From Candidatus Poribacteria bacterium (lineage in GTDB: Bacteria; Poribacteria; WGA-4E; UBA9662), in assembly GCA_046582655.1 (NCBI GenBank), contig JAYGDX010000259.1, positions 5,250-69,249 on the forward strand: a stretch of DNA of 64,000 nt, given 5' to 3'. The stretch's first letter is position 1. The number at the start of each line of letters is the position of its first letter. The notes below the pieces were generated by a model that saw only the letters and a program-made list of their open reading frames with translations, had not been told where the DNA came from and ran no database searches. This document shows positions 7,922 through 32,467 of the stretch, piece after piece. Position numbers and translations under genes: made by a program.

Positions 7922-7942
7922 ATTAGGAAATTAGGAGGGTGG

Positions 7943-9561: not shown

Positions 9562-9675
9562 TTCAAGAATCGTTTTTAATTATGTACTAGATGAATTTGA
9601 TCTGCCGAATTGAATATTCCAGTTCATACTTGTGCTTTATGATAGTGATTCTTATTTGACAAACTGTTTTTGAAT

Positions 9676-9705
9676 CACCTACTAAGAGCTAGGTGAAAAT
9701 TTTTG
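9676..9705 (+). terminator. Candidate intrinsic terminator: hairpin caccta-ctaagagc-taggtg followed by AAAATTTTT.
   Basis: A 6-bp perfect stem with an 8-nt loop, then an A4T5 run, lies 115 nt downstream of the PhyH-2 stop and upstream of the thioesterase-like gene. The stem is short, so this is weak. Confidence 0.3.
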
Positions 9706-9796
9706 CCTCAAAGATCATCTTAAGCTTCAGTTTGGTATCAGTATCAATAACCAGTAGATGAACGTCGAACTTGAAATTATTGGTCATTCCTAAGCA

Positions 9797-10240
9797 ATGC
9801 GTGATTACATCCAAAAAATTATAGATCAGGAAATTCCGATTGCCCGAAAAATGGGCATCAAGGTCAATTCTTATCTTCCCACCAGAATCGTCCTTGACAT
9901 TCCTCTTCGGGCTAACAGAAATCATCGGCATACTGCATTTGGCGGCAGTATCTATTCCGGGCTAGTTTTGGCCGGTTGGTGCCTTCTCATCGGAAATTTG
10001 CAAGCGAATAATTTAGCCGGGGATGTAGTAATCCAGAGAGGGGAGGTTGAATATTACAGACCGATAAATGATGATTTTGAAGTGGCTTGTGCTTTGGCTG
10101 ATATGGACCAAATTTCATCTTTTCTGGATAGATTTTCGCAGAAGGGTAAAGCCAAAATAATGCTTAATTCCACAATTAGGGTTAGAGATGAGTTACTGGC
10201 CGAATTTACGGGCAAATATGTCGCGTTGGCTAACCATTAG
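9797..10240 (+). CDS. Hotdog-fold thioesterase-like protein (YiiD C-terminal domain-like).
   Basis: The 147-aa ORF contains HTAFGGSIYSGLVLAGW... and then a conserved EV.Y core, typical of small PaaI/YiiD-type thioesterase-fold proteins. Confidence 0.65.
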   Translation: MRDYIQKIIDQEIPIARKMGIKVNSYLPTRIVLDIPLRANRNHRHTAFGGSIYSGLVLAGWCLLIGNLQANNLAGDVVIQRGEVEYYRPINDDFEVACALADMDQISSFLDRFSQKGKAKIMLNSTIRVRDELLAEFTGKYVALANH

Positions 10241-10969
10241 CTGTCGGTTTTTTGATACATTTTGATGGAATAACAATTTCCTCTTCAACCCTTCACTCCA
10301 TTCAATGGAGGTAACTCTAGACAGAACTCGATCTTTGTGTAACTAACATAGGTCTGATATAAACAATTGGGTGACAAAAATTTCAGCCATGACACCAACC
10401 TAAGGGTTTCAGGTAGAGCATACTGCTATCCAAATCTCTGATCCAAAGCTAATGGAAGGTCAGTTAGGTGTCATCTTGAATAGACTTTGTTGCCAACCTG
10501 AGTGCCAGATACAATTTCAAGTTCTTGACCCATCTTTGGTATCTACTTATGTTTATAAAGGTTACCAATCTTTGTTGGTTGAAGGAGAGAACGTCTGTTT
10601 CTATCTTCCTGCCGAAAATGCAATTTTTGTTCCTTTTGATCGATGGATGTTTAGCTAGGAAGGTCGCCCATCTCTATATTATCAGGAAGAGATATCTAAC
10701 AAAATTTATCATCTGTATTTGACACACTCATTAAGACAGAATTCCTATTACTATCAGGTAATTAGCCGCTATGGGGTCAAGGCAAAAGTCTTCATCAGGC
10801 ACAAGCAGATCCTTTGATGATCGTTTTGATGAAGCTGAGAGAGTGGAACCAATTATACCATTCTAAAGTTGTAAAGGGATGTAAAATCGGGCGACCTCAG
10901 GTGTGTAATCAGCTCGAACTGAAATTTTCCCTTCTAGGAGTGGTGCTGGATAAATAAGGGCGATTATCG

Positions 10970-12967: not shown

Positions 12968-13140
12968 CCATTGAACTCAGAGCAATCGGGTTGGAAAGTT
13001 ATCCTCTGTTCGATTCCAATGTTTAAATGTTGTCATTGATTTGTTCCTTTTTGATCTAATTATTTGTCATCATGGCCGACGAGTGAACAATTGATTCTAC
13101 AGAATTCTAATTTCTTCTAATCCTTTCAGCCACACGTCTT

Positions 13141-15271: not shown

Positions 15272-15780
15272 TCAATGCTGACGTAGTGGATGATCTACTA
15301 GCAAAGACCAATCCGGTTGATCTTCCGGATTGTTGAGTGCTCCATGGGCGTTTCGGATAACTTGGCGTTGATTGTCGTACCAATCGCTGTAACTTGTGGC
15401 AGGATGCACATCGTCGTTTCGCATGACTAGTAGTTTTCGGAGTGAGTCATCTAGTTTTCTCCTGATTTTTCGGACTTTCGGCTTTTGCATCAAATTGTGC
15501 ATCTGAAGCGGATCGGTTTCTAGATCGTACAATTCTGTCAATCTATCTCTCCAACGTGTGTAGTTATGATGTGTTGTCCGAACACTATGTCATTCCTAAC
15601 CATCGACTCAGTAGTTGTGAGTGACACCAAAGTTCATGGTTAAGACAGCTTCCTGCTCAAACGTGCCTGACCTGCCCAGCCGAGCGTCTGAGAAATCGTA
15701 TCCTTCGATATTACGCGGAATTGGTAGATCTAAAAAACCATTTAACGATGGAAACAGATCAAGAGTCATGGAAATAAATT
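15272..15780 (-). pseudogene. Sulfatase C-terminal remnant (the N-terminal catalytic two-thirds is missing and the rest is frameshifted).
   Basis: One minus-strand frame gives ...TLDLFPSLNGFLDLPIPRNIEGYDFSDARLGRSG... (the sulfatase DLFPTLLDLAGIP...GRSL region) and stops at 15603. A second frame (ORF 15272..15541) gives NYTRWRDRLTELYDLETDPLQMHNL, the sulfatase ELYDL.DP.E..NL C-terminal motif. Upstream sequence is occupied by the end of gene 15893..18115. Confidence 0.6.
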
Positions 15781-15892
15781 GAAAAGCAATACCATGAGTA
15801 ACAACACTGCAGATACGTGCATTTTCCTGCCTTTGATCCTCCCAAAACGAGATCTTCGATGGATTTCCAGCATCCTTCCCAACGGAAGGGTA

Positions 15893-18094
15893 TTACCATG
15901 GAAAGTTGTAGGACGGTTTGTGGACGAAACGCTTTGTGGTGATGTCAAGCTTTATCTGCGACTGTGGTGGCAGGTGAACCGTCAAGCGTGTACCGTTTAC
16001 AGGCAGTGACGCCTCCTCCTCCAACTGAGGTTGGTACGCTGCGTCGGCAAACTCGTGCTCAGCGTAGGTACCGGCCTGAACAATTACGTCTTGTGAATGT
16101 GTGAGACTGAGGTTGAGCAGATGTAGGACAGTGCGATCCGACGCCAGCTCAGAAACCAGAGCTGCAACATCCGGTGGCAACCCCGGCCGCTTGTTCATCG
16201 GGTCGAAGTGACGTACGCGCGCCATCAGCAATCCACCGTTGTAGAATGGCAGTGGCGCACCCATGGTCAGGTTAACTAGCCCCTCGACGCTGACCGGATT
16301 GCGGTAGATAAGGCTGAACCCATCGTTTTCTTTCGGCTGATGCTGGCGAATCTCATCCAAGCGGCCGTTCACCTGCGCAATATTGTATTTCAGGATCTCT
16401 TCTGGATATGTCGGATATGTGCCGTCTAGATAAGCCTGCCAGGCGGCTTCGTGCCCACCGTGGTCCTTGGACATAAAACGGCTGATCGATTCGATCCTCT
16501 CCCAATCGCGGGACCAGCGTGCCTCAGGATCATGATTGCGGATTTTCTTAGAGCGCTCAAGGTCGGCCAGATCCATTGACATATTCCAGAGATGTGCCGG
16601 ACCAACCGGGTCCATGGGCATAAACTTAAACCAGCCGTTGACTTCTTGGCACGTCCCATCAGGATTTCGCAGAACCGGGAGGAACGACAGCGGTGCATTG
16701 ACCACCTTTTCTGGGTCGCCGTGCTTGTGAGGGACATAGACTGTATTATTCTTGGCGATACCTAACCCAATGAGCAAATCAATCTGGCTACGCAGCAGGT
16801 CGAGGTAGACGGAATCACCAGTCACCAGCAACGCATTTTCGGCGGCCATCCCCGTGGATTGAGCGTATCCGCCCCATCCATGGTAGACAGTCCAGCCGTA
16901 GTAGCCACCATGCCACTTGCCGTTGATGTATTCACCAATCTTGCCTGATAAGCCGACATTGTCGGGCAAGATCCCCCCGTTCTCCTGCACTCTCTTGATC
17001 CAAGCGTTGGTATATTCCGTGATCCACGTGCGATACTTATCCTCACCCGTGGCCAGGAAAGCGTTGAGCATAAGGCTAGTAACAGCCAGGTTGATAGGAC
17101 CATCGCCACGTCCCCACCGGGCATGCGCTACTGCTGCCATCTTCTTCATGTTATCATCTGCGTTCAAATCGGCGTAGCTAGCAATACCTGGCACATCGTA
17201 GAACGGAAGTCCATAGTGCTCCATAGTCCAGACGTACTCCCAAGGCTTGTCGGGCGTCCACGGTAGCGGCCCGTTGCTGCCAGTTTGGGTGTTGAGGATC
17301 AGTTTGTGGTCAGGATCGTAGTTTTTCACGTCGGGATTTTCGTTCAGGTAGAGACCAGCGAAACGCTGAGCACGATCAATAAATTTTGGGTCGGATGGAT
17401 CGGCTAAGCATAGCATATAGAACAGGTGACAACCTTCACCGAGATGAAACCAGTCGCCGCAGCGGTGGAACTCATTGTCCAGAGTGCCGTTGTCGGCAAA
17501 GTGACGAGTGATGGCCTCCCACTGTCGCTTGGCAAGTGGGAGGAAACGGGCATCGCCACCGAGCGCGTAGAACGTTGGCCAATTGTGGAACGTCTCGTAA
17601 GAATCGTCCAGTTTGCCCCAACAATTGTACCGGAAAGAACCATCGTCCTTCAGGTACTTCTCAATGAATACGTCGACGGATGTGTTCATCTGGTCGATAA
17701 GCTGTCGCTGTAGCACAGCCCATTCCGGAGGTTGGTCGAATGTCATGGTTGCATCAATGTGCGGGATGACACGGTCATTAGCTGCCCAACACCAGCTTGA
17801 GCAACTGAACACGAGGATTACTGCCAGAATACACCCAATTGTTTTGCCAAGTCGTGATCTGCCATATCTGGTCATATATTCCTCGTTATGTTTCAATTTA
17901 GCACAGTTAGGTATTAATTGATTCGCTCGAACTGGAAGCCGCGCGAGGCATCTTGAGCGTCCATGCGTAAAAGTCGAACTGCCCGGCCATATCCTTACCC
18001 ATTCTTGTTGTGTTAGTCGCGCGATAGCGAAAGCAGGTAGGAGAAAAAGTATAGCTGTGGTCAGCACCGACAGTCGCTTGAGTATGTGTGTCAT
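15893..18094 (-). CDS. Hypothetical secreted protein of about 730 aa (start uncertain between 18094 and 17875).
   Basis: The long ORF has two consecutive signal-peptide-like segments. MTHILKRLSVLTTAILFLLPAFAIA begins at the ATG at 18094 (RBS ACGGAGA). MTRYGRSRLGKTIGCILAVILVFSCSSWCWA begins at the ATG at 17875 (RBS GAGGAA). The Trp/Gly-rich body (GGYYGWTVYHGWGGY) suggests a carbohydrate-active enzyme, but it is unassigned. Confidence 0.65.
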   Translation of the reverse strand: MTHILKRLSVLTTAILFLLPAFAIARLTQQEWVRIWPGSSTFTHGRSRCLARLPVRANQLIPNCAKLKHNEEYMTRYGRSRLGKTIGCILAVILVFSCSSWCWAANDRVIPHIDATMTFDQPPEWAVLQRQLIDQMNTSVDVFIEKYLKDDGSFRYNCWGKLDDSYETFHNWPTFYALGGDARFLPLAKRQWEAITRHFADNGTLDNEFHRCGDWFHLGEGCHLFYMLCLADPSDPKFIDRAQRFAGLYLNENPDVKNYDPDHKLILNTQTGSNGPLPWTPDKPWEYVWTMEHYGLPFYDVPGIASYADLNADDNMKKMAAVAHARWGRGDGPINLAVTSLMLNAFLATGEDKYRTWITEYTNAWIKRVQENGGILPDNVGLSGKIGEYINGKWHGGYYGWTVYHGWGGYAQSTGMAAENALLVTGDSVYLDLLRSQIDLLIGLGIAKNNTVYVPHKHGDPEKVVNAPLSFLPVLRNPDGTCQEVNGWFKFMPMDPVGPAHLWNMSMDLADLERSKKIRNHDPEARWSRDWERIESISRFMSKDHGGHEAAWQAYLDGTYPTYPEEILKYNIAQVNGRLDEIRQHQPKENDGFSLIYRNPVSVEGLVNLTMGAPLPFYNGGLLMARVRHFDPMNKRPGLPPDVAALVSELASDRTVLHLLNLSLTHSQDVIVQAGTYAEHEFADAAYQPQLEEEASLPVNGTRLTVHLPPQSQIKLDITTKRFVHKPSYNFPW

Positions 18095-18433
18095 AGTTAG
18101 TCTCCGTTTTGGCATCTAAATCGTGGTGTTTCAGAAACAGCATCTGCACCACCTATCTTTCGGGGTCAACGTTGATCTTCGGCACAAAATATGATTCCCG
18201 TGGAATCAACCATACAATTAAGTTGCAGTAAATGCCAAATGCACCCAATTCACTTTTAAGTTAAATTACATTAATTCGTTCAGATTGTCTAAATTGGCAT
18301 GCTGAAGCAGGATAGCCCCTTGACCTGGAACAAGGTAACCAGATTGATCGATGCTTTAAACATCATATGGTTGGTTCGAACGTGGACCATGAATTAGCTA
18401 CTGTTCCCTTCTGGATCAAAGAAAAAAGATGGG

Positions 18434-19399
18434 TTACCTAATCTTGATCTTCACCAAATAGATGCTTGTCTTTCCTTCATGTGATGAGTAGTAGCTCATC
18501 CACAACAGGTCATCGTGCCATACCAACCCTGGATAGCTGCAATCACCACCGCTAGGCACCGTGAGAACAGGTTCGTAACTGTCTCGCCTCATGCGGGCAA
18601 GAACAGTGGTTGGCTTTTCGCCAGAGCGTCGTCCAGCTGCCCATAGCCCACCATCTGGCAGGCGGATAAAGTTGGGGCCACCAATGTTCTCTTCCATTTT
18701 AGTCCACGACCATTTTGTGTAGGGCTGACGGCTTGTACCGATCCAGTGGGGTCGTGTAAGAGCAATCATCTCACCACCGGGCAAGAACCGGAGCGTCGTT
18801 TCGCTGGCGTTCCAAGTATTGTTAGGTAGGCGGAACTCGGTGATCCACTCCCAATCAAGAGCATCACGGCTACGATACAACATACACCTCCGTGGGTCGC
18901 GACCTTCACCCAGTTTGCTGACACCCCATGCCCAACCGTCCTGCCAGGTTACACGCCAAAGCCAGTGATCTTCGGCCAAGAGTTTTCTTGGTTCGGTCCA
19001 ATCGTAGCCATCCTTGGAGAACGCCACTCGCGGCGACCGAGTCTGGCAGGTACCTCGGGCATCATAGACGCTACCTCCCATGATCAACATCAAACGATCG
19101 CTAGGCATGATAGAGAGTTTGGGATCCCGTAAGTCAGTCCCTTTCTGTTCAAGCGATGCTGCCGACTTCCAGCAGTCCCCATTCTCCGACATGATTATCC
19201 TTATTGTACCGTTGCTACCTCCATGGTCTTGAGCCTCACGGAATGTACACCACCAGCGATTGCGAAAGTAAATCAAATCGGTGAAAGCGCTGTGTGGGGC
19301 GCGATCCCAAATTTTTCTGGCCGAAACGATATTCGGTTCCTCTGCCTCGAGCAATTGTGAGATCGTAGTAAACAAACAGGTTAGGAAATTGGTTATCAT
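18434..19399 (-). CDS. BNR-type sialidase/neuraminidase-like glycoside hydrolase family protein.
   Basis: The 321-aa ORF has the N-terminal region ...KIWDRAPHSAFTDLIYFRNRWWCTFREAQDH.., characteristic of BNR_2 exo-alpha-sialidase-like proteins. It also has an ATG start and a signal-like N-terminus. Confidence 0.7.
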   Translation of the reverse strand: MITNFLTCLFTTISQLLEAEEPNIVSARKIWDRAPHSAFTDLIYFRNRWWCTFREAQDHGGSNGTIRIIMSENGDCWKSAASLEQKGTDLRDPKLSIMPSDRLMLIMGGSVYDARGTCQTRSPRVAFSKDGYDWTEPRKLLAEDHWLWRVTWQDGWAWGVSKLGEGRDPRRCMLYRSRDALDWEWITEFRLPNNTWNASETTLRFLPGGEMIALTRPHWIGTSRQPYTKWSWTKMEENIGGPNFIRLPDGGLWAAGRRSGEKPTTVLARMRRDSYEPVLTVPSGGDCSYPGLVWHDDLLWMSYYSSHEGKTSIYLVKIKIR

Positions 19400-20167
19400 T
19401 GTTTTTTTCCCTACTCGAAATATTGAGAGTGTAGCACAACTCTCAGTTCAATGTCATCCATTCCCAAACACATATTGGTATAAAGAGCTCTGATGGTCTC
19501 GAATCGGCAAGTCATAATCCACCGTCACAAATTCGGCTTTACACATGATGATGCATATGGAATAACAGTGCATTTCTCTGATCGTCTGGTCCTAGGCTTT
19601 GTGCCGATGTGCACACCAATGTGCCCAGAGGGAAGTGCATCATTGTGGTTGGCCACTTGAGTTCGGCATGAATCGTATCTGGACTTTCCGTCTACGTTTA
19701 CTGGGTTTGTCAATTCTACAACCAATACCAAGGCCATCGTAGTGAAAAGGATCTGAGGACGCGCTGATAACCAAGCCTGTTTCTAGGAGATGGCATATTT
19801 GACGACTAGCAAGTGACAGCAGCCCAGTATGCCATTGAAGTCTAGTTCAAACCATTGTGGGCGATATGTATAGCTTTGGGTTACTAGCTTCTAGCTGGAA
19901 AGAAGTGATATGTTTCGCTGTTTTGGAACCTGGTCTTTTTTGCTTGAAAATTATCCGACTCTTTGTATGTACCGCTGTTGGGATCTTATTGTGTGTAAAT
20001 AAGATTGGGCGAAAAAAACAGTCTGATAGGATCTTCACCAAGGCGGCAATAATTAACGATGACTATATATATCAAGAAAACCTGCTCGCCTAGTTTAGTT
20101 AACTCGACTATAATGAACGTAGTTTGTGGCTAAATTTAGGTTCATATTACATATGGGGTTTGACACA

Positions 20168-20198
20168 GATCGAGTGCGAGTTAGAGACGCACTCGATC
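20168..20198. promoter_or_regulatory. Perfect 11-bp inverted repeat, GATCGAGTGCG-N9-CGCACTCGATC.
   Basis: The repeat is read directly from the sequence, 65-95 nt upstream of the amidohydrolase start (20263). No T-run follows, so it is more likely an operator or 5'-leader structure than a terminator. Confidence 0.3.
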
Positions 20199-20262
20199 CT
20201 GTAAGCAAGACCAACGGAGAAATGAGCTGGGAGTTACTCAACCGGATACCTCTCGGAGTGGT

Positions 20263-21327
20263 ATGACAGCGGGATCTCTATCGCTGATCGATGCCGACGT
20301 GCATAATTACACTCGCTCGGTTGACGATTTGATGCCGCATTTGTCAGAGCGATGGAAGGCCTACATCGTCCAAGGCGGGTTCAAAATGCCGGGGGTGAGC
20401 TTGTATCCGAAAGTGTACGCACAGGCTGCACGACGTGACGCGATTCCCTATGAGGGTGGGGTTGCTGGCTCTGAGCCAGAATTTGCAAAAGAACAGCTGC
20501 TCGATATGTGGGGAATTGACTACGGAATCCTGAATCCGCTGATCGGTGTGCCGCAGATCAAGAACCCCGACCTCGGACGAGCTTTGATGCGAGCTGTCAA
20601 CGACTGGACAAAGACTGACTGGCTCGATTCTGATCCGAGGTGGCTTGGCTCAATCTTGGTCCACCCTGGTGATCCGGAAGGGTCAGCGAAAGAAATACAT
20701 CGTCTCGCAGATGACAGGCGTTTCGTCCAAGTACTGCTGATGGCTCGCTCTAGCATGCCCTATGGAAAGTGGCAGATGGATCCTATCTATGAAGCTGCGT
20801 GCGGAGCCGAATTGCCAATTGGGATTCACTTTGGTGGAGGGGGCGATGTTCCGATCACAGCTGTGGGATGGCCATCATATTATATCGAGGACCACACGGG
20901 AATGGTACAGGCTTTTGAGAGCCAGGTGATCAGCTTAGTCTGTGAAGGCACCTTCGTCAGGTTTCCTAAATTGCGGGTCGTCCTGATCGAAAGTGGTTTC
21001 GCCTGGCTGCCAGCACTGATGTGGCGTCTCGACCAGAACTATCGTGGGCTGCGTGATGAGGTGCCATGGCTTAAGAAACTACCGAGTGAGTACATTCTGG
21101 AACACTTCCGAGCGACAACGCAGCCGATGGAAGAACCTCCAAATCTACAGCATCTCGTGCAGATTCTAGATATGATCGGTTCGGACGATTTCCTAATGTT
21201 TGCGACGGATTATCCTCACTGGGACTTTGATGCACCGAATCAGGCAATTCCGAACGTGATCACGGGTGAATTACGAGAAAGAATTATGTGGAAAAACGCT
21301 GCCGTGTTCTACGGGCTGGGGTCGTAA
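20263..21327 (+). CDS. Amidohydrolase-2 family (ACMSD-like) metal-dependent hydrolase.
   Basis: The 354-aa ORF shows LIDADVHNY near the N-terminus, the Asp/His-rich TIM-barrel segments GIHFGGGG and FATDYPHWDF, and the overall length and pattern of PF04909 proteins. Its TAA stop abuts the ATG of the next gene (TAAATG). Confidence 0.85.
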   Translation: MTAGSLSLIDADVHNYTRSVDDLMPHLSERWKAYIVQGGFKMPGVSLYPKVYAQAARRDAIPYEGGVAGSEPEFAKEQLLDMWGIDYGILNPLIGVPQIKNPDLGRALMRAVNDWTKTDWLDSDPRWLGSILVHPGDPEGSAKEIHRLADDRRFVQVLLMARSSMPYGKWQMDPIYEAACGAELPIGIHFGGGGDVPITAVGWPSYYIEDHTGMVQAFESQVISLVCEGTFVRFPKLRVVLIESGFAWLPALMWRLDQNYRGLRDEVPWLKKLPSEYILEHFRATTQPMEEPPNLQHLVQILDMIGSDDFLMFATDYPHWDFDAPNQAIPNVITGELRERIMWKNAAVFYGLGS

Positions 21328-21699
21328 ATGCCTGTATCTAGCCAGAATCACGATGTTGGGCAAGTCGACGCGTTCGAATCAGGAAGACCCTACGTCGTTT
21401 GTGTGGCAGGCAGGGATGTGGTTCTCGTCCGGCGGGGAAATGAGTTCTTTGCGATTCGGGACGTGTGTCCCCACCACGGAGCGAAACTATCCGATGGCCT
21501 GTTGACAGGAGAAGTATCAGCTAGCCGGCCTGGCGAGCAACCCGAACTGCTGCGTAAGGATGAGTTCCTAGTGTGTCCCTGACATGGTTGGAAGATTGAT
21601 GTTCGTACGGGGTGTTCATCGCTAGAGCCGGATTGCATCAGGGTAAGACGGTATGGCGTTCACATCGAGGGGGGACGTGTTCTTGTGGCTCTCTCGTGA
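21328..21699 (+). pseudogene. Rieske [2Fe-2S] ferredoxin (NirD-like, about 123 aa) interrupted by an in-frame TGA at the conserved Trp of the CPWHGW box.
   Basis: ORF 21328..21582 contains Rieske box 1 (CPHHGAKLSDG) and ends ...LVCP-TGA (21580-21582). The same frame continues HGWKIDVRTG...YGVHIEGGRVLVALS to a TGA at 21697-21699. A single TGG to TGA change would account for this. Confidence 0.7.
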
Positions 21700-22100
21700 A
21701 AACAAGATAATTTGAATCGACTGACGAAACTCGAATTCCCATGGCTTCAATTCCAACTGGTGATGAAATCGTCCACTTGGAAATTCTCCAGCATATGGTT
21801 CATTTCATATCGGCTCTTGACCCCCTGAAAAATGGTTAGTCGCTACTTTGCTCGATACCTGAAAATTTAGAGGTTAAGCAGAAAGGCAAGAACTTTCATG
21901 TTGTTAGACATGCAGTGGTGAATAAAATTGGGTTAGTGCTGTCCAACCATCGCAGAAATTCGTTAAAACCGGCATGAGGATGAAAACAAATATTGGGTAT
22001 CTGTTGAGCGTAAAGTATTCGGGCAGTCGAGTTCTATGAAGTAGCTCCAGTTTGAAATCGAGTATCCGCTGATTGAATACCGGCATGGCACCTCATCCAA

Positions 22101-22232
22101 CTACTCAGAGGTCGGAGGGATGTCCTGCCAGTCTACCCAAGGGGCATGGTCTCTAGCTTCCAACTCATGGTGCAGGCGTTGAGCGAACTCTATATCTTTA
22201 CGCAAATAAGAGATGAATACGTCGGACATCAT
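22101..22232 (-). pseudogene. TIR-domain N-terminal remnant (43 codons then TAG).
   Basis: The minus-strand translation from ATGATG at 22232 reads MMSDVFISYLRKDIEFAQRLHHELEARDHAPWVDWQDIPPTSE. This is the classic DVFISYSRKD...L...G..VWvDwedI start of bacterial TIR domains. No TIR continuation is detectable in any frame downstream. Confidence 0.5.
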
Positions 22233-22501
22233 TTAGTTGACCTCAAGCATACAGCATATCGGCATTATCAGTTCAAAACCAAGATTTCATACTTTGCTTT
22301 TTCCTTGGCAGTCAACTGAGGGGTGGCTCGACTTTCAGTGATTTGCAATAACTCTTCAATGTCTGTAATGTAGATTTGGACAATGCCATTTGCTCTCTTT
22401 GATATTCGATTAGAAAAGAAGCCCATGGGAGCTAAGCAAGGATATACAAAGTTAGATTGGAAATCCCAGTTTAACTGGAAGTACTTGAGAAGGGGAATAC
22501 C

Positions 22502-23082
22502 ATGCCGGGAAATCCTATTTTTGTGTTTGCAGTCTTAATTTGCTTGATGGCAAGTGTGTCGTGTGCTTACGAACATGCGGGAAATATAACTGGCTGGAAC
22601 CTCTATGGGACATGCCAGAATGAAATAACTTTTAACTGTACAAACCAACAAATAATAAAAATAAATATTTTAACCGACAATATATTTCGGGTGAGATTCT
22701 CCGCCGATGGGTCACTACCAGCTTCAAGGATGATTGGACAATGGAATCTTGTACGTTCGAACAACGGTTTTCCCACCCCGACTTTACTGCTGTGGATGAG
22801 GAAAAGGCTGTTTTGATAAACACAGCAGAACTCGAGATAAAAATAGATAAAAGTCCTTTCCTCATTAGCATTTTCGACAGAGAAAACCGCTTAATAGCTA
22901 AAAAAGCGCTTCCCTGGGAATGGGCAGCGATGGTGATGCCTATTTACAAATGGATTAGCTTGCTGATGAGCACCTTTTTGGTGTGGTTGAGGGACTCGGT
23001 GCGATAAAACGAGATGTTCCTTTTGAAGCAGCGAAAATTTCAAGCATAGAACTGCATGGGATAGAACCCAAAGAAGGGTGAT
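22502..23082 (+). pseudogene. GH31-like (alpha-glucosidase/xylosidase-type) N-terminal remnant, frameshifted and truncated.
   Basis: Three successive reading frames carry the fragments. Frame A (22502..22816) has a lipoprotein-like signal plus IIKINILTDNIFRVRFSADGSLPAS. Frame B (22741..23007) has DKSPFLISIFDRENRLIAKKALPWEW. Frame C (22971..23082) has HLFGVVEGLGAIKRDVPF (compare YGLGE). The fragments end where the converging MFS gene begins. Confidence 0.45.
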
Positions 23083-23097
23083 AACTCTGGGCCAAAC

Positions 23098-24306
23098 TTA
23101 TATTGTGTTTTCTAAAGGACTTTGCGGTTCCTTACCGAATATATGGGTGATTAAAGCAGCCAAAAGGGCGATAATGGATGAAATCCTAAACATCACAAAT
23201 CTACCGTGTGTTTTTTCAATCCCACCACATATTTTCCCCCCGATCATCCCACCCAATCCCCAAACAATACCACTGTATAAAGTTTGTCCACTGGCACGAA
23301 CCTGATCCGGCAACATGGTACTGATGAAGTTAACGATTCCAATATGAAAGGCAGTATAAGTTAGCGCATGAAAAAGTTGCAGAAACAAGATCGCGATTAT
23401 TGATGGTTTCAGCGAATAGAAAAATAATCTCATGGCCATACCTAGCATACCGATAATCACTATCCATTTTATTCCGGTCCATTTTATTAGATTACCGATA
23501 ACAAACATCATCCCAATCTCTGATGCAACGCCTAATGCCCAGAAGAATCCCTGTGAACTGTCAGGGACTCCAAGATCTTCAAGATAAATTGAAAAGAAAA
23601 TATAATAAGCCTGCATAGCTGCCCTGGCCATTAACCCTGTAATCAAAGTTAATACAAAGTTGACGGTGATAAAGCGGTTGAGCTGGTTCCATTTGAAAGG
23701 TTCTCTAACCTCCACTTCAGCAGGATTTGGAATCATCAGTACCCACACGACACCTAATAACCTAAAAGTACTGAAAAATATAAATACCGATAATAGTCCA
23801 TAGCCAAACTCTGAGGTGATGTTTCCCTCGAACTCGTCCTTAATCATCAACTTAAATAGGAGCATTGAAATTCCAATTCCAATCGATCCCCAAAGTCGTA
23901 TTCGGCCGTAGTCGCCCCCATGTTGCTTAATGAAACCCAACGTCAGTGCATCATTGATCGGGGCAACAGGCGTTTCCAAAAAGGAAAAAAGCATAATAAT
24001 ACCCAATATAGCATAATAGTTTTTTGTAAAAAGCAACAATGGGTATACCAAACTGGCAGACAAGAAAAGCAGAGCTATGATTCGTCTCATGTCCTTGACT
24101 GAATCAGCAACAATCCCCCAAATTGGCGAGGAGAATATGCTCATGAATGAAAAGATGGCAGCAACGGTTCCAAGCTGCGAACTATTTAACCCCGCACGCT
24201 TTAGGTAGAGATTCATGTAGATGAGTATTCCACTTTTTGGACTAAGCGAAATAAAGTGGAGCAAGCTATAATGGCGGCGGGAACTTTTATTAGTAATTTC
24301 TGTCAT
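23098..24306 (-). CDS. Major facilitator superfamily transporter.
   Basis: 402-aa ORF with about 12 hydrophobic helices and the MFS loop motif (GIVADSVKDMRRII). The start is ATG and the stop TAA. Confidence 0.85.
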   Translation of the reverse strand: MTEITNKSSRRHYSLLHFISLSPKSGILIYMNLYLKRAGLNSSQLGTVAAIFSFMSIFSSPIWGIVADSVKDMRRIIALLFLSASLVYPLLLFTKNYYAILGIIMLFSFLETPVAPINDALTLGFIKQHGGDYGRIRLWGSIGIGISMLLFKLMIKDEFEGNITSEFGYGLLSVFIFFSTFRLLGVVWVLMIPNPAEVEVREPFKWNQLNRFITVNFVLTLITGLMARAAMQAYYIFFSIYLEDLGVPDSSQGFFWALGVASEIGMMFVIGNLIKWTGIKWIVIIGMLGMAMRLFFYSLKPSIIAILFLQLFHALTYTAFHIGIVNFISTMLPDQVRASGQTLYSGIVWGLGGMIGGKICGGIEKTHGRFVMFRISSIIALLAALITHIFGKEPQSPLENTI

Positions 24307-24400
24307 TGGAAGAATATATTTCAGCCAGAAGCTTGAAACTTCAAAGAAATTAGATTTGATGTAATGCCTATAGCATACAGGAAGTAACGAATGGACTAAC

Positions 24401-25792
24401 TCAAGACCGGTAAGCTTCCCAAAAGGCTTGTCCTTGTTCCTGTATGTCTCCGTATTCAGTTTGCCACTGCTTAAGTTCGTTTCTTAACCGCTTTAGTGTT
24501 TCTATATATTGACCATTATTGCTCAAGTTAACAGTTTCTCGCGGATCGTTTAACAAGTCAAAGAGCTGTGTTTGAGCATGTCTGTCACCGACAACATATT
24601 CAATCAATTTATATTGTTGATCACGGATACCCCTCTGCAGTCCTTCGTAGGCAAAGTGCAGGTATTCTCGAATTTGTTCCGCTGGTCGTTCAAGATGAGG
24701 AATCAAGCTTTTGCCCTCTACTGTTTTTGGATATTGAATCCCGATTAAATCACAGAGTGTCGGAAAAATATCGATCAGGTAAGTTAATGCTTTTCGCCTT
24801 TCGCCTGATGGGATGTTAGGGCCAGCTAGAATGAGGGGAACATGTACACTGTGATCATAAACATTTTGTTTGCCCATTAAACCATGTTGACCAATCGCCA
24901 GTCCATTATCACCAGCGAACAGTATAATTGTGTCATCTAGAATTCCTTTCTCTTTTAGTTTGTTCATTACTCGACCGACAGCTGCATCCAAATGGCTAAT
25001 CATGGCATAATATTCGGCAATGTGTCGTTGTACCTCTGATTTGGTTCGGGGAAATTCTGCCAGCAGTTCATCGCGCCCTTTCATCCAACCGTTGTCGAAT
25101 GGATGCTCCGGCACGAAATTCTCAGGTATCTCGATTTTTCGCGGATCATACATCTGTAAAAAATCTTCCGGCATACTCCGCGGATCGTGGGGTGCCATGA
25201 ATGAAACATAGGCGAAGAAGGGGGTATCATCGGATTGGTTCTCAATAAAGTCGATAGTTGCCTCAGTGAACAGGTCGGTAGAGTGTTTACCTGCGGTGAT
25301 ACGGTCGCAACGTTGCCAACTGACGTGGTTGTTGCTATGCGGATTATCGATTTTGGGATTGATGGGATAATTGCCGGTTGGATCATAATCGCAGGCAGGA
25401 ACATTCCAGTGATCCGCCATTCCACCAAAGAAAATCTCGGCTCCGGCATTAAAACTTCGGGCATAAGAACGGATGCCGTTATGCCATTTCCCAGTACCGA
25501 ACGAAGTATAACCTGCCTGTTGAAGCGTTTCACCTAACAGGGCATGTTCCTCTGGTATAGATTGCCCCTGCCGGTCAAGATGATAGAGTGTTCGTCCGGT
25601 ATGAAGCATTCCGCGGCTGGGCATACATACCGCTCCACATGATCCGCCCATGATGTAACTGTTAACAAATGTTGTTCCTTGAGATACAATTTGATCGAGA
25701 TTCGGTGTGGAAATCTCAGGGTTATTGACACTTCCAATTGTGTCAAATCGTTGGTCATCTGTGAAGAAAAAAACGATATTCGGTTGATCCAT
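24401..25792 (-). CDS. Cys-type sulfatase (arylsulfatase family), with no signal peptide.
   Basis: The 463-aa ORF starts MDQPNIVFFFTDDQRFD and has the active-site signature SCGAVCMPSRGMLHTG (C-x-P-s-R-xxx-L-TG). It ends with a TGA stop. Confidence 0.9.
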   Translation of the reverse strand: MDQPNIVFFFTDDQRFDTIGSVNNPEISTPNLDQIVSQGTTFVNSYIMGGSCGAVCMPSRGMLHTGRTLYHLDRQGQSIPEEHALLGETLQQAGYTSFGTGKWHNGIRSYARSFNAGAEIFFGGMADHWNVPACDYDPTGNYPINPKIDNPHSNNHVSWQRCDRITAGKHSTDLFTEATIDFIENQSDDTPFFAYVSFMAPHDPRSMPEDFLQMYDPRKIEIPENFVPEHPFDNGWMKGRDELLAEFPRTKSEVQRHIAEYYAMISHLDAAVGRVMNKLKEKGILDDTIILFAGDNGLAIGQHGLMGKQNVYDHSVHVPLILAGPNIPSGERRKALTYLIDIFPTLCDLIGIQYPKTVEGKSLIPHLERPAEQIREYLHFAYEGLQRGIRDQQYKLIEYVVGDRHAQTQLFDLLNDPRETVNLSNNGQYIETLKRLRNELKQWQTEYGDIQEQGQAFWEAYRS

Positions 25793-26164
25793 GAATTTAT
25801 TCCTTTCCTTTCAATCCACACTTCTGTTGAAGTAAGAACATGTCCTTCAGTGCCCTGTCTGAACGGGCATCAGTATCAAGGATCTGCTTTAGTATAATCG
25901 TATATTGACCAAATTAGTAGCAGATAAACCATGTAGACTTGAAGACCGAGCATCAAGTTACCCGTTAGACTCCAATAATTTTATTGACCTTAGATCTGAA
26001 AATAGTTAAGATATGTTGCGTTTTGATAATTGGATCTTAGGGCAATTGTCGATTAACATTTACAAGCACTTTTTCGCGCAAAAATTGAAATTATAGTAGT
26101 ATAAGGAGCAAGTCTGAATGCCATCTTTTAGCGGGACTGGCTATTTGACTTCTGTAGGAGCTTT

Positions 26165-27061
26165 ATGGGATTAAGTCAAGAACAACTCCAACATTTTAAA
26201 GAAGAAGGTTTTTTACTAATTCGGGATGCTTTAGCCGATAGCGATCTGGATTCGGTCATTCGGGAGTACGAAGAACACATTGATCAACGGGCTAGAGAAT
26301 TGTTAGATCAAGGTAAACTTTCACGACTCTATAAAGATCAGTCCTTTGAACGTCGGCTTGTCTGCATTTGTCGGGAGAACAATGAGATCTATTCTGAACT
26401 TGATATTATGCACTTACGTGGTAAAGCTTCCTTTGATTTTCTGCGCAACAAAAATCTGATGAAAATCGTGACCTCTATCGTGGGTACAGAAATTACTTGT
26501 AGTCCGGTCCAGCATATCCGTGCCAAATTGCCGGTGGGCTTGACCCCAGAAGGGGCTGACGCCCATGTCGCTCCATGGCACCAAGATGCTGGGGTAACAT
26601 GGGAAGAAGCAGATCCCTACTTTATCCTGACGGTTTGGATTCCTCTGACCGAAGCAACCGAAAAAAACGGTTTTTTGCAAATTATTCCACGTGTCCATGG
26701 TATTGGGCTTTTGGCACATCACTCTAAAGCTGGGGTCGGAACTACCATTATTGATGAGGAAATACCACCACAGGCAATGTTGAATTTACCCATGCAAAAG
26801 GGAAGTGTTCTGCTAATACATAAGGAAACACCTCATCGGTCAACACCCAACCAATCTGATACTGTCCGTTGGAGTATGGATCTTCGGTATCAGAAGACTG
26901 GCACGCCAACCGGACGTCCCTTCCATCCGGATTTTGTCGTTTATAGCCAGTCCAATCCAGGTTCGGTACTGGACGATCACGAACAGTGGAGGAATATGTG
27001 GATTCAGGCACTTGAAAACAGTAGAGGCGTCCAAGCTCATCGTTGGTCACAAAAAAGTTAA
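26165..27061 (+). CDS. PhyH-family Fe(II)/2-oxoglutarate oxygenase, paralog 3.
   Basis: The N-terminus FKEEGFLLIRDAL, HxD (WHQDAGV) and a distal His (HKETPHRSTPN) are present in the 298-aa ORF. Confidence 0.85.
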   Translation: MGLSQEQLQHFKEEGFLLIRDALADSDLDSVIREYEEHIDQRARELLDQGKLSRLYKDQSFERRLVCICRENNEIYSELDIMHLRGKASFDFLRNKNLMKIVTSIVGTEITCSPVQHIRAKLPVGLTPEGADAHVAPWHQDAGVTWEEADPYFILTVWIPLTEATEKNGFLQIIPRVHGIGLLAHHSKAGVGTTIIDEEIPPQAMLNLPMQKGSVLLIHKETPHRSTPNQSDTVRWSMDLRYQKTGTPTGRPFHPDFVVYSQSNPGSVLDDHEQWRNMWIQALENSRGVQAHRWSQKS

Positions 27062-27134
27062 AGGACATTATTGGTTTTCTTACCAAGCAACTTGTGGTCC
27101 TGTCTTACAATTTGCAAGAAGAGTATTGTAATTA

Positions 27135-27908
27135 TTAAACACTAGCAATATATCCTCCATCCACAACTAATGATGTCCCTGTAATCCATTCAGCATCATC
27201 TGAGGCGAGAAAAACTGCGGATCGCGCAATATCCCTCGGTAGACCAAAACGCGGCAAAGGGGTTCTTTGTCGAACTTCTTCAATCTGATCCAGCGTGAGA
27301 TAGTCTTGAATAGCGGTCTCAATATAGCCCGGGCATATAGCGTTAACGGTGATGTTTTCTTGCGCGACTTCCAGCGCCATATCCCGAGCCATATTGACGA
27401 CCGCAGCCTTAGCTGGAGCGTATGCTGGTCCTGCGCCGCCTCCGTAGGCGTGGACAGAAGCAATCTGAATTATCCGTCCATACTTAGATTTTCTCAAATG
27501 TGGAATAGCAATTTTTGTAGCAACAAAGATAGAACGCAAATCGACACCAACCACTTTATCCCAGTCAGCAATTGAAATTTCTTGGCTGTTTCCGGGTATG
27601 TGTATACCCGCGTTATTGACAAGTATATCCAGCCCACCAAAATGTTCCACCGTTTTCTGGATCAGGAGATCAACCTGGGAGTCATCAGCCATATCTGTTT
27701 GAACAAACAAACCTTGGGCACCGAGTTTCTCAATTTCTTCGACCGTAGGCGTTATTGTATTTTTTTCGTGATATTTACCACGACTTGGAGCCTCTTGAAT
27801 ATCAGTTACCACGACTTGAGCTCCTTCACGAGCGAATTCAGTTGCTATCCCTCGACCGATTCCCGAACTCCCTCCGGTTACGATGGCAATTCGATTCTCT
27901 AGCAGCAT
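27135..27908 (-). CDS. Short-chain dehydrogenase/reductase (SDR) family oxidoreductase.
   Basis: The cofactor motif TGGSSGIGRG, the NNAG motif and the catalytic YxxxK (YAPAKAAV) are all present in the 257-aa ORF. Confidence 0.9.
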   Translation of the reverse strand: MLLENRIAIVTGGSSGIGRGIATEFAREGAQVVVTDIQEAPSRGKYHEKNTITPTVEEIEKLGAQGLFVQTDMADDSQVDLLIQKTVEHFGGLDILVNNAGIHIPGNSQEISIADWDKVVGVDLRSIFVATKIAIPHLRKSKYGRIIQIASVHAYGGGAGPAYAPAKAAVVNMARDMALEVAQENITVNAICPGYIETAIQDYLTLDQIEEVRQRTPLPRFGLPRDIARSAVFLASDDAEWITGTSLVVDGGYIASV

Positions 27909-28261
27909 ACAAACCTCTTAGGTGAAGCGTCTTATGGTATGAAATGACTTCTTAATTAGGAAACTTTCTGAGTCAATGTAAGCCAAAATACCAGTTATAA
28001 TAAATTATTTGGTGTTACCAGTAGCACGCAGAGATAGCGCAACCTTCAGAGGGCCAAAGGAATTTATAAAACATAAGGGCAAAAAACAGGGTTGATTAAT
28101 ATCAGTATAGCGCCACTGAATATAGTACATGACGGGGCATCAGGGAATCGAAGCGTAATAGGATAGCAAAAGATAGTTTTGGGTTCCTTTATATCGAACA
28201 ATTCCCAAATACCAGATTAACCCAATAAGCTTACAATTAGGCAATCCGCTTAACTTAATTG

Positions 28262-30741
28262 CTAGAATTGCACCGATATAGATGCATTAATTCTGCGTCC
28301 AAAACCATAAAATATCTTTGTTGTTTCTGCATTATGTTCTTTCCCATCAATTCCATCACTGGCATAGGCAGTATCAAGTAGGTTTAGGATATGCAGACCG
28401 AAGACTAGATTATAACTCGACAGCTCCATACTGTAACCGGCGTGTAAATCAAGCAATGAAACAGAGTCTAATTTATATGCGTCATCCCTTGTCTTGTTAT
28501 TTCTGTTTTCAGGATTAAAGGCAGCATAGTGGTTATCGAAGTATTTAAGTACGCCAGTAATCCCTAAATCCGCAATTGGAGTTAGATTAATCCTTCCAGA
28601 AACTTGCGTTTGAGGCGCGTCACCCACATGCAGCCCATCAGAATAGATTTTAACATCGTATGTGTCTTTACGTCCGTAATCATCTGTTACTGTGGCAGCG
28701 ACGTCTCCACTCCAAACCCAGCTTCCAATTAACATTGAGCCTCCTAACGAAACTAATTCATTTAGTATGAATAAGCCATCAAGCTCTATGCCGCTGTGGT
28801 TGGCATTCAGTCCTTGAATGTTGTAGATGTTTCAACCGTCATCTTTCCCTTTGCTAGTTCTTACGAGTGCTTTGTCCTGCCATACTGTATAGTAGTAATC
28901 TATATCCACGATATATTTACTTGAACGATAACCCGTACCTAATTCAAAAGCTGTGATCTTTTCATTCTTAGCTTCCGGATTAACCGTATTATTATAATTC
29001 AAGTAAACATTATGGAAGTTAGGCGCAATTGATAAACTGCCGATATTTCCGAACACATTTATCTGAGAGTTAACGTTATAGTTAGCACCAACCTTTGCAG
29101 CGTATCCAGGGAAATTGGCCGTCTCAGACATTTTCTCTTCCGGTTCGTAATTGAAAGGATCCTCCCTCTGGTATTGAGTGTTTGAAAAAGCCAACGACCT
29201 GAAGGCTGACAGCGTATCCGTCTTATATTCAGTTTGTCCAAATTCCCCAATCCATTTATTGTAGCCGGTATTGAAATAAGCGATTTTATCCCCAACTTTA
29301 GCGGCGTTACCATCTGGTACATTTTTATCACTGTAATCAACGTAGTAATCTCCACCGAGCAAGTTTTGAACCTCTCGATAGTGAATGCCAGAATAAGCTC
29401 GGGCATCAATTCCACCACTTAATGTTATTTGATTTGTCAACAAGTGATTGAGCGATGAGATAACCCCATACCAGTTATGATGGTTTACCGATGCCCGAAT
29501 GATATACTTCGAGCGTTTTTCAGACTTCGAAAACATATGTTCCATCGTCCCCATGTTTGGGATTGATGTATTTCCAATTTTTTTCTCATCATCCCCATCA
29601 TCCCACCTTAGTATAACCACGTGAGTTGAGTGGCCCCGTACCACCGCCACGGCCATTAGAACCATAGATACTGTAGATAGCTTTGCTTTATTGCCAACCT
29701 TCCAATACCAGTTCAAGTTATAAACTGGTTTGTGATAATAGTTGGTACGACTGTTGATCAACCATTTTCCACCGACCTTTTTAAGTAACTGAATATTTCC
29801 ACCAAACAACGCGCTGGAAATGAAGTCCATAGACTCACCACCATAAGATCCTTCTTTCATTAAATTTCTTGCATCATCGCCTACATATCCCCAACCACTT
29901 CCTGTGGAACCGCTATTAACTTTGCGGTCGTCTGGGCTACCGTATCTAGTATCGTAATTAAAAGATTCCCAGTCCTTGGCAGTGTGTTTATTATCTCCGT
30001 CGCGTTGCCCATGCTGCTGAGGCGCTCCAAGAAGTGTAAAATCAAATGAATGATTACCAAAGGTCTTATTGGCGGTGAAAAAGTAAGAGTACGCATCCGT
30101 CCATGTTCCATCTACATAACCATTCCCGGTTTTCTTTTGTAACAGAAATGATGTTGCGATGTCGTTATTCAATTTACCGGTGGAGTAAGACAAAGTGGTC
30201 TTCAAAAAACTTTGAGAACCAAATTCTTGTTTAAAGGTACCACCCTTTTTCATATCAGCAGCAGAGGTAAGGACGTTGATAGTTCCACCAACCGAAGCAA
30301 TAGCGAAGTTACTGGCTCCTAAACCTCGTTGCACTTGAATAGAATTAGTAACATCACTCATTCCATCCCAATTGGACCAGTAAACCCAGCCATTTTCCAT
30401 ATCGTTAACAGGGACTCCATTAATTCTGCCACGTTTCGCTGATTAAATCCGCGAACATTAACTCGGCTGTCTCCTGATCCACCATCCGACATCGAAGCGT
30501 AAACGCTAGGAGTCTCACTCAATATCATTGGTAAATCTCGCGAAGCGAGCCTGTCACTTAAATCAGATTTGCTAACATCAGAAAAAGCAACAGGAGTTTC
30601 CCTGACTGTGGCTCGATTGGCTATAACACTAATTTCTTCCAATTCTATTTCTGTAGGTTCTTCGACATTTTCTTTTTGTCCAAAAGCCGAGAATGTAGAA
30701 ATCATTGACACAAAAAAGATTAATATGGAGAGCTTTTTCAT
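28262..30741 (-). pseudogene. TonB-dependent receptor (about 810 aa) disrupted by a -1 frameshift near 30419-30425 and an in-frame TGA at 28832-28834.
   Basis: Three ORFs are collinear. 30358..30741 has the signal peptide plus plug (RVNVRGFNQRNVAE). 28832..30400 has the barrel and starts MENGWVYWSNWDGM. The join requires one extra nt within ttaatt (VAEL|NGVPVNDMENGW). The barrel ORF ends ...KGKDDG-TGA, and the same frame continues NIYNIQGLN...GSMLIGSWVW (ORF 28262..28735), ending with the typical terminal ...ISVQF. Confidence 0.75.
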
Positions 30742-31036: not shown

Positions 31037-32467
31037 TTATTTTAGCAATTCGTAAAAATCTCGATCTCCACGAATATTGTCGAAAGCAGTATCTATCTTT
31101 AACAGTTCAGTTGCTTCATGTCCAACAAGACTTATCGCTTGCTGAAGAGAACTTATAGCTAATCCTTTTTGGTTATTTAGTGAATACATGCGCGCTAAGC
31201 TATAGTAACCTTTTCCATACTCGGGATCAATACGCATAGTTTCGTTCAAGTGATTAATGGCTTTATCGATCAGGCCTTTGTTTGCGTAAATTATTCCTAA
31301 ATTATAGTGAGCAGAGATGCTATAAGGATTAATAAGGATAGCTTCTTTTAGGTGATAAATAGCTTCGTCAATTTTCTGGTTTTGGTCATAAGCAATATCT
31401 GCTAGCATAAGGTGCGCTTTCTCATAATTCGGGTTGACGCGAATAACCTCTCGCATGTGATGAATAGCCTGGTCCGGATTTCCTTGTTTACTATAGATAG
31501 ATCCCAAATTGTAATGCGCCTGTAAAAAGTCGGGATTGATGCGAATAACCTCTCGCATATGATGAATAGCCTGATCCGGATTTCCTTGTTGTTGATGAAA
31601 AGTCCCTAAATCGTAGCGGCCATATTCATCATTAGGGTTGATACGGATAACTTCTTGGTAGACCTTGATAGCTTTATCTAACTCTCCATGTCGAGAATAA
31701 ACTAGGCCAAGGTTGACATGCGCTTCGAACAAATTGGGATTGATACCAATAGCTTGTTCATACATTTCAATGGCTTTTTCGATTCTGCCCTGTTCAGAAT
31801 AGGCAACGCCTAGATTGACGTAGGATGAGGCATCTTTGGGATTGATACGGATGACTTCTTTCAGGTGATGAATAGCCTCGGTTATCTTGGCTTGCTCTCC
31901 ATAAACTATTTCACTCAATGAACGGTGCGTTTCCTCATGGTTGGGGTTGATGCGGACAACCTCCTTTAAGTGATAAACGGCCTTTTGAATTTCACCCTTT
32001 ACCTTATAGCAATTGCCTAAACTCAGGTGCGCACGGTAGTAATCAGGGTTAATCTGTATTGCTTTTTGATACTCTTCTATTTTATCTTCGGTTTCCTCCA
32101 AAACCTGCCCTATTAAATAGTGATAAATCTCATTTCCCGGATGTTGTTTAATTTTCGCCCGATATTCATTGATAACCTGATTGGATCTTCCTTGTTCCGC
32201 CATGAGATGGATATATTCAAGATGAGCTTTTAAATGCAGTTGATCTATCCGAATGGCATTCTTAAATTCCTCTATCGCTTTCCGTGGGTTTTGCTGTTTT
32301 ATACTGGCTCCAAGCTCGTAATGATTTTTTGCTGTTTCATGTAGATTAACTTCATCTTTTTTCTCATAGGATTTGATTTTCTTATCGACACAACTAGTCG
32401 CAACTATAAGAAAACATACCGTCAATATTAGATTTGAAAGAGGAAGCCTAATGGATATATTTTTCAA
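31037..32467 (-). CDS. Tetratricopeptide-repeat lipoprotein.
   Basis: 476-aa ORF with a signal peptide and lipobox (LIVATSC). About ten 34-residue TPR units recur (AI..Y.EAIRINPN... and A..NLG..Y). The start is TTG. Confidence 0.8.
   Translation of the reverse strand: MKNISIRLPLSNLILTVCFLIVATSCVDKKIKSYEKKDEVNLHETAKNHYELGASIKQQNPRKAIEEFKNAIRIDQLHLKAHLEYIHLMAEQGRSNQVINEYRAKIKQHPGNEIYHYLIGQVLEETEDKIEEYQKAIQINPDYYRAHLSLGNCYKVKGEIQKAVYHLKEVVRINPNHEETHRSLSEIVYGEQAKITEAIHHLKEVIRINPKDASSYVNLGVAYSEQGRIEKAIEMYEQAIGINPNLFEAHVNLGLVYSRHGELDKAIKVYQEVIRINPNDEYGRYDLGTFHQQQGNPDQAIHHMREVIRINPDFLQAHYNLGSIYSKQGNPDQAIHHMREVIRVNPNYEKAHLMLADIAYDQNQKIDEAIYHLKEAILINPYSISAHYNLGIIYANKGLIDKAINHLNETMRIDPEYGKGYYSLARMYSLNNQKGLAISSLQQAISLVGHEATELLKIDTAFDNIRGDRDFYELLK

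Follow-up and report, generated by a model that had tools for sequence, protein, structure and literature searches.

What defines flexible genomic islands (regions of genomic plasticity) of marine bacteria is polymorphism between the strains of one species, in the form of presence/absence or of replacement. Prokaryote pseudogenes were surveyed by Liu, Harrison, Kunin and Gerstein (2004; PMC522871), who described a pattern of 'failed horizontal transfer' for many of them. Here we compare with these systems a cluster of broken genes from Poribacteria, a group for which the free-living Pelagiporibacteria clade has been described (PMC8546597). The cluster occupies positions 15272-30741 (the stretch) of a contig segment of 64,000 nucleotides (nt), which we call the window. 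It holds the remnants of a sulfatase gene, of two TIR-WD40 genes and of a GH31-type glycosidase gene, a TonB-dependent receptor pseudogene and a Rieske ferredoxin gene with a nonsense codon.

Our best overall explanation, which we hold to be probable, is that the stretch is a species-specific patchwork with junction debris and one decaying receptor, located on the chromosome of a Poribacteria species that is free-living (pelagic). Deletion and illegitimate recombination would have placed working, selectively maintained gene blocks side by side, namely a DUF8034 gene, a sialidase-like gene, an amidohydrolase-Rieske pair and an MFS-sulfatase-PhyH-SDR block. Gene ends would have been left at the breakpoints: the 3' third of a sulfatase gene, a tail/head junction fragment of TIR-WD40 genes and a GH31 5' fragment. 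This debris would later have gained stops and frameshifts. Separately, a complete native TonB-dependent receptor gene would have been inactivated in place and would be eroding stepwise, and the Rieske ferredoxin gene would recently have gained a nonsense allele. The broken loci are as follows.

15299..15880, minus strand: sulfatase 3' remnant, approximately residues 267/294-466 of an enzyme of about 467 aa (tblastn with the intact sulfatases P0121-P0126)
21328..21699, plus strand: small Rieske [2Fe-2S] ferredoxin gene, 123 codons (NCBIfam ferredoxin-subunit matches)
22035..22232, minus strand: 5' fragment of a TIR-WD40 gene, about 60 codons (TIR_2 match and N-termini of TIR-WD40 proteins of Poribacteria)
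22268..22462, minus strand: 3' tail of another TIR-WD40 gene, the last 40-65 codons and the stop (tblastn with P0163-P0182)
22502..23078, plus strand: 5' fragment of a GH31-type glycosidase gene, with signal peptide and N-terminal beta-sandwich
28262..30741, minus strand: TonB-dependent receptor pseudogene (homologous TonB-dependent receptors, TBDRs; DNA alignment to the sister-lineage contig L021)

By exact-sequence look-up the window was identified as belonging to metagenome-assembled genomes (MAGs) of 'Candidatus Poribacteria bacterium' and to metagenome contigs. The matching samples came from hydrothermal plumes and open-ocean water, a habitat that fits the Pelagiporibacteria clade. The stretch recurs with an identity of at least 99.5% in 12 or more independent contigs of metagenomes or MAGs. 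Window 13098-34306 has collinear counterparts, 99.91-99.96% identical, in six contigs from independent assemblies of different projects (L001-L006). The contigs of three more divergent strains (L024-L026) are collinear too (99.5-99.8% identical), and contigs retrieved with P0262 and P0204 have the same arrangement. All lesions other than the Rieske TGA are present in L001-L006 and in L024-L026. Because the lesions are common to independent assemblies, an assembly or consensus error is excluded for them, and the original prediction was right that the stretch is not simply a case of uniformly poor sequence quality.

The TonB-dependent receptor appears to be losing its function in place, step by step when strains are compared, and a sister lineage shows an inactivation of its own. 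Its 826-aa reconstruction yielded thousands of TBDR matches with end-to-end alignment, and the DNA is 87.6% identical to L021. The frameshift and the nonsense codon that had been predicted for this gene are both there, a 4-nt deletion in the plug at ~30426 and a TGA at 28832-28834 where L021 has Leu. Yet they are accompanied by four more, which makes six disabling lesions: a -1/+1/-1 series with a 1-nt deletion at ~29669, a 1-nt insertion at ~29607 and a 1-nt deletion at ~29583, and a 113-nt deletion in the barrel at ~29535. An additional 3-nt deletion at ~30170 is harmless. The four frameshifting indels, the 113-nt deletion and the TGA are common to L001-L006.

Across the wider sample the lesions are nested. 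The 4-nt deletion and the +1 insertion occur in all sampled strains, the further 1-nt deletions and the 113-nt deletion in most of them, and the TGA is limited to the main clade; one strain (P0283) has an additional, different frameshift. P0276, P0277, P0279, P0280 and P0285 are still in frame across 29669 and run into a stop right behind the +1 insertion. Leu stands in place of the TGA in P0257, and one MAG with this Leu (GCA_012963625.1) has all internal receptor lesions. In the sister lineage an intact 866-aa receptor allele (P0289) stands beside an independent TGG-to-TAG allele (119 + 738 aa), whose stop, seen in at least two assemblies, is 30 nt away from the site of the 4-nt deletion in the window. 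The ratio of non-synonymous to synonymous divergence (dN/dS) of the receptor against L021 was 0.117 at a dS of 0.50, indistinguishable from that of the neighbouring SDR gene (0.105). Therefore the receptor was constrained for nearly all of this divergence and died recently. Programmed frameshifting and a split plug/barrel receptor were rejected in view of the out-of-frame barrel stretches, the 38-codon deletion, the stop and the uninterrupted 866-aa sister allele. Gene calls for the receptor pieces (127/115, 522/509/473 and 157 aa) were found repeatedly across many records, where the pieces are now deposited as 'hypothetical protein' or 'TonB-dependent receptor'.

The sulfatase, TIR-WD40 and GH31 loci lack large parts of their genes. 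Window 15817-15299 (minus strand) aligned to a 467-aa sulfatase without gaps over residues 294-466, with 49% identity (E 7e-51), and matched Pfam SGSH_C (E 5e-5). The N-terminal 293 residues are missing, i.e. the catalytic two thirds with the formylglycine Cys/Ser motif, and three in-frame stops at 15610, 15598 and 15592 lie within seven codons. The TIR-WD40 5' fragment is 83-88% identical to the N-termini of TIR-WD40 proteins of Poribacteria. Its incomplete TIR domain, 22232-22104 (minus strand), covers positions 1-39 of the 122 of the TIR_2 profile with an E of 2e-6, above the gathering score. It is followed by a Trp-to-stop change at 22101-22103, then by a frameshift, then by the truncation. 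Directly upstream of it, across a spacer of 40 nt, lies the tail of the other gene: the C-terminal 40-65 residues of P0163-P0182 match 22462/22393-22271 (minus strand) with 48-71% identity, and the nucleotide identity to positions 11864-11991 of contig L023 is 78%. To judge from the sequence, the two pieces would represent the junction of a tandem gene pair.

The GH31 remnant is spread over three frames (22502-22771, 22771-22965 and 22962-23078). As separate pieces these gave a weak match (E 0.024), while a 194-aa reconstruction with two frameshifts corrected matched Gal_mutarotas_2 with an E of 4e-7; its 30.9 bits exceed the gathering score, which is 27. When one of the frame pieces served as query, an exhaustive phmmer search returned only the piece itself and one weak unrelated match. 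The (beta/alpha)8 catalytic domain is absent, and the remnant is cut off 20 nt from the stop codon of the MFS gene. Homology to relatives stops at each truncated gene, and we therefore infer that the remnants were left by deletions or by illegitimate recombination when the blocks were joined.

In the Rieske ferredoxin gene the TGA at 21580-21582 falls between Cys and His of the second cluster-binding box (CP*H versus the consensus CPWH), so that the CxH ... CxxH cluster ligands are not in one reading frame in the window; CPWH is intact in the TGG alleles. Base 21582 is A in the window and in L004 only, and G (TGG, Trp) in L001, L002, L003, L005 and L006. L024 and L025 also encode the intact 123-aa protein, and the nonsense allele is found in the window and in one of eight other assemblies. 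Because other strains carry TGG at this site, the nonsense allele is polymorphic; it is young and still segregating. The same TGG codons rule out TGA recoding. A second polymorphism of this gene was noted at window 21634, a T>C change from Cys to Arg in at least one compared contig.

Around and between the broken loci the stretch contains the following intact genes and a long intergenic gap.

15893..17875, minus strand: DUF8034 protein, 660 aa, with signal peptide (precomputed Pfam PF26099; G+C content (GC) 53%)
18434..19399, minus strand: 321-aa protein, named exo-alpha-sialidase by NCBI (GC 52%)
19400..20262, no strand: divergent intergenic gap of 863 bp (GC 43%)
20263..21327, plus strand: Amidohydro_2 protein, 354 aa (Pfam, E 3e-36)
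23098-24306, minus strand: MFS transporter (Pfam)
24401-25792, minus strand: sulfatase (Pfam)
26165-27061, plus strand: PhyH-type dioxygenase (Pfam)
27135-27908, minus strand: SDR (Pfam)

The genes at 15.9-21.7 kb form a GC-rich block (52-55%) in a window with a GC of 43%, while all broken genes have 41-44%. AT-richer spacers divide this block into the DUF8034 gene, the 321-aa gene and the Amidohydro_2-Rieske pair (20263-21699), in which the Amidohydro_2 stop codon abuts the Rieske start. DUF8034 homologues are only 37-46% identical, and searches of PDB and NCBIfam with this protein gave no match. The 321-aa protein had no sequence match in Pfam, NCBIfam or PDB; its gene has an orthologue in the Tara contig L023 with 84.5% nucleotide identity and a dN/dS of 0.107. 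A chimeric query of the four proteins of the block returned only four distant DUF8034 homologues and also missed the self-matches. The length of the DUF8034 protein differs between gene callers (617, 660 or 733 aa). Its open reading frame (ORF) is open upstream to 18115, i.e. for 80 codons (17876-18115, minus strand) beyond the likely start. Within this extension lies another segment that resembles a signal peptide, MTHILKRLSVLTTAILFLLPAFAIA; it may be the head of a further lost secreted-protein gene.

Two long non-coding gaps had been predicted. The gap at 19400-20262 is indeed devoid of any gene remnant detectable in a Pfam scan of all its stop-free fragments, and one strain has a 21-bp deletion in it at 20119-20139. 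The other, 21700-22500, is not empty but holds the TIR-WD40 fragments.

The four genes from 23098 to 27908 are syntenic in the Poribacteria MAG contigs L007, L008 and L022 at about 83% nucleotide identity. Two other species, represented by L007 and by L008/L022, are homologous over 23108-27963 alone; in them smpB, the transfer-messenger RNA (tmRNA) gene and an integrase gene lie on one side of the block and unrelated genes on the other. A single scan of metagenome contigs yielded one locus, which belongs to the species of L008 and brought nothing new. In L021 the receptor still adjoins the SDR gene. In L023 the 321-aa gene is followed by an intact 662-aa TIR-WD40 gene, an order that differs from the window. 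Homology to this contig is limited to the 321-aa gene (19430-18419) and the two TIR-WD40 pieces and ends at most 30 nt from the gene borders.

The intact genes that were tested are under purifying selection, and island-wide relaxed selection is not supported. Against the sister species dN/dS was 0.169 for MFS, 0.083 for the sulfatase, 0.094 for PhyH, 0.089 for the SDR and 0.107 for the 321-aa gene; DUF8034, the amidohydrolase and Rieske had no sister-species orthologue for this comparison. Within the species (12 contigs) intact coding sequences had 1.97 segregating sites per kb, the dead pieces 4.18 and non-coding DNA 4.48. The difference from coding sequences was significant for pseudogenes (Fisher p = 0.028) and for pseudogenes together with non-coding DNA (p = 0.006). 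The dead pieces appear to evolve without constraint, their pooled density of single-nucleotide polymorphisms (SNPs) being like that of non-coding DNA. Taken as a whole the stretch is not hypervariable. On the same contigs the stretch differed from the window by 0.65-0.79 differences/kb and the flanking core DNA by 1.6-3.0, values for the stretch that are biased low by retrieval through exact protein matches. The low diversity spans 14-28 kb, and 34-40 kb is equally low. Window 1-13000 showed 2-11 differences/kb, several-fold above 14-40 kb, with hot spots at 5-6 kb (a 631-aa gene without Pfam match) and at 10-11 kb (an intergenic gap).

Within the window the broken loci are clustered in the stretch. 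Inside the stretch 56% is intact coding sequence, 26% pseudogene and 18% non-coding. The remaining 48.5 kb of the window carry 36 apparently intact genes at a coding density of 89.8%, argS, nadD, ftsZ/A/Q/W, murC/D/G and priA among them, and the core genes of the window have no frameshifts. An intact DUF6785 gene on the left of the stretch ends at 15117. The three largest intergenic gaps outside the stretch contained no Pfam remnant. The window has about 50 loci, 13-14 of them in the stretch, and all five to six dead loci are among these; calculated post hoc, such a placement has a hypergeometric probability of 2e-4 to 7e-4. The original prediction had listed at least five gene inactivations in these 15 kb next to intact housekeeping genes (argS, nadD, dcw genes, priA). 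All five were found at or near the predicted positions, the number was an undercount, and the housekeeping genes are intact in the window.

The absence of mobile-element genes, also claimed beforehand, held. No integrase, transposase, relaxase or phage domain was detected in any ORF or stop-free fragment; scans of the window gave neither a tRNA or tmRNA gene nor an Rfam match; and a search for insertion-sequence or att-like boundary repeats revealed no flanking direct or inverted repeats, only chance-level matches of 16-26 nt. A megablast of the whole stretch against plasmids gave no match. Among the hallmarks of integrative genomic islands the atypical base composition is present, while integrase/recombinase, a tRNA/tmRNA target and flanking direct repeats are absent. 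Presence/absence or replacement polymorphism, the hallmark of flexible islands, was not seen either, all sampled contigs being collinear in a sample biased to identical probe proteins.

How do these data bear on other explanations? That poor MAG quality produced the frameshifts and stops has next to no probability. The window does stem from a metagenome-assembled genome, and nearby repeat-rich genes (TPR at 31.4-31.6 kb, the FtsZ linker) vary between assemblies; but for the shared lesions, identical in the independent assemblies and the divergent contigs, the explanation is already refuted, and the receptor-piece gene calls repeat in many records while core genes are free of frameshifts. The original prediction had proposed relaxed selection, e.g. 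after a niche shift; on this view a glycan/aromatic-utilisation island that is no longer needed would be decaying gene by gene. Five or six dead loci in 15 kb, the fresh polymorphic nonsense codon in the Rieske gene, the independent receptor inactivation in the sister lineage and a ratio of 11 non-synonymous to 10 synonymous differences in intact genes within the species would be in line with such decay. On the other hand, the tested intact genes have dN/dS values of 0.08-0.17, the four-gene block is conserved in two other species, and the SNP density of intact coding sequences is half that of the dead pieces. Moreover, three dead loci are truncations exactly at synteny breakpoints and not full-length genes with point lesions, which suggests scars of rearrangement or deletion and speaks against gradual niche-shift decay. 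Nor do the broken genes form one functional set: the receptor, the GH31 enzyme, the sulfatase and the TIR-WD40 proteins, which are of a defence type, are functionally unrelated, and the sole basis for 'aromatic utilisation' is a small Rieske ferredoxin with an Amidohydro_2 protein. Relaxed selection applies only to the receptor and possibly to the Rieske gene, and the rest would be junction debris between constrained blocks; as an account of the whole stretch we regard it as unlikely.

Likewise improbable, in our estimate, is that an integrated mobile or defence island lost its mobility genes by deletion and that the stretch is what remains of it. TIR-WD40 genes are typical cargo of defence islands and here just fragments of them are left, the genes at 15.9-21.7 kb have a deviating GC, and in the sister species the four-gene block adjoins smpB-tmRNA and an integrase, a classic integration site. 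Yet the searches for mobility and phage domains, for tRNA or tmRNA genes, for flanking repeats and for plasmid matches were all negative, and the region is fixed in all sampled strains instead of being variably present. A further explanation takes the loss of the receptor to be selected, e.g. as an escape from a docking phage or toxin, with the other debris being incidental. The purifying selection on the receptor until recently, the independent null alleles in two lineages with several different ones among strains, and the low diversity at 14-28 kb compared to the flanks would be in line with it. If it were true, the receptor would be knocked out repeatedly because its loss is of advantage in the pelagic habitat, e.g. 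where it serves a phage or toxin as receptor. That would account for null alleles arising independently in two sister lineages, and a recent sweep tied to the loss would have left the reduced diversity at 14-28 kb. But nested accumulation of lesions is what neutral decay of a dead gene predicts, the low diversity is confounded by contig retrieval and is matched at 34-40 kb, and an intact allele persists in the sister lineage. We give selected loss only a slim chance.

Several points weigh against the patchwork with junction debris, which we favor nevertheless. The ancestral arrangement was recovered in no relative, and the junction debris is deduced from the ends of homology, not from a before/after comparison. 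The nearest database relatives of the sulfatase remnant are only 47% identical, i.e. there is no close orthologue, and the GH31 assignment consists of a single Pfam match just over threshold. The background rate of pseudogenes was taken from 48.5 kb only. Contigs were fetched via exact protein identity, so that diversity within the species is under-sampled near the probe genes. Finally, a higher GC is no proof of transfer; the 321-aa gene has a sister-species orthologue with normal divergence. The truncations would have arisen at rearrangement junctions, and the higher-GC genes may have been acquired.

Some features of the neighbourhood and of the relatives were noted along the way. In L007 (11603-13923) and L008 (11847-13158) the four-gene block is followed by smpB, by a tmRNA gene (tag ADTELALAA) and by a DUF6538/phage-integrase gene; this locus, an island targeted to the tmRNA gene, has no counterpart in the window. 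Window 7145-9561 and 26165-27061 carry three PhyH-type dioxygenase paralogues and an FGE-sulfatase gene less than 20 kb from the sulfatases, and in L023 PhyH genes are also near a DUF6785 paralogue, which suggests a recurrent PhyH/sulfatase/DUF6785 association in pelagic Poribacteria. In the TPR gene at 31037-32467 the contigs L001 and L002 break or differ at window 31400-31600 with clustered mismatches and overlapping alignment blocks, probably a collapse or expansion of near-identical TPR repeat units and not real point variation. The gene after ftsA (40441-41877, minus strand), without Pfam match in precomputed annotations, is a genuine ftsZ (Tubulin, E 5e-48, and FtsZ_C). Its called length ranges from 383 to 469 aa between assemblies and alignments break at 40710-40737, suggesting an indel or repeat polymorphism that is probably located in the C-terminal linker.

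The value of the locus is practical more than conceptual. Of interest is its clean record of decay, resolved at the population level, in a lineage that is uncultured. In a MAG of such a lineage, clusters of frameshifts and stops can be genuine and species-wide, and public metagenome contigs alone suffice to order lesions in time. For Poribacteria, one outer-membrane receptor appears to have become dispensable in the free-living clade in which adjacent sulfatase, transporter and oxygenase genes are retained. The receptor pieces should be annotated as one pseudogene.

Among the known systems, integrative islands targeted to tmRNA or tRNA genes are approached by the sister-species block with its smpB-tmRNA-integrase border, while the window lacks tmRNA, tRNA, integrase and att-like repeats. 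With flexible genomic islands the stretch shares a species-specific arrangement unlike that of the sister species, the lack of obvious mobility genes and a cargo of glycan-related, transport and surface or defence-type genes; it differs in being collinear in every sampled strain. The pseudogenes surveyed by Liu and colleagues resemble those found here in being disabled copies of known gene families, with truncations, frameshifts and nonsense codons, in a region of non-conserved gene order, and in their deletional bias and stepwise build-up of lesions. Here, though, the broken genes have a host-like GC and the genes with atypical GC are intact, the opposite of the 'failed horizontal transfer' pattern. 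Taken together the phenomenon is ordinary and known in kind, and in this stretch it is unusually well documented.

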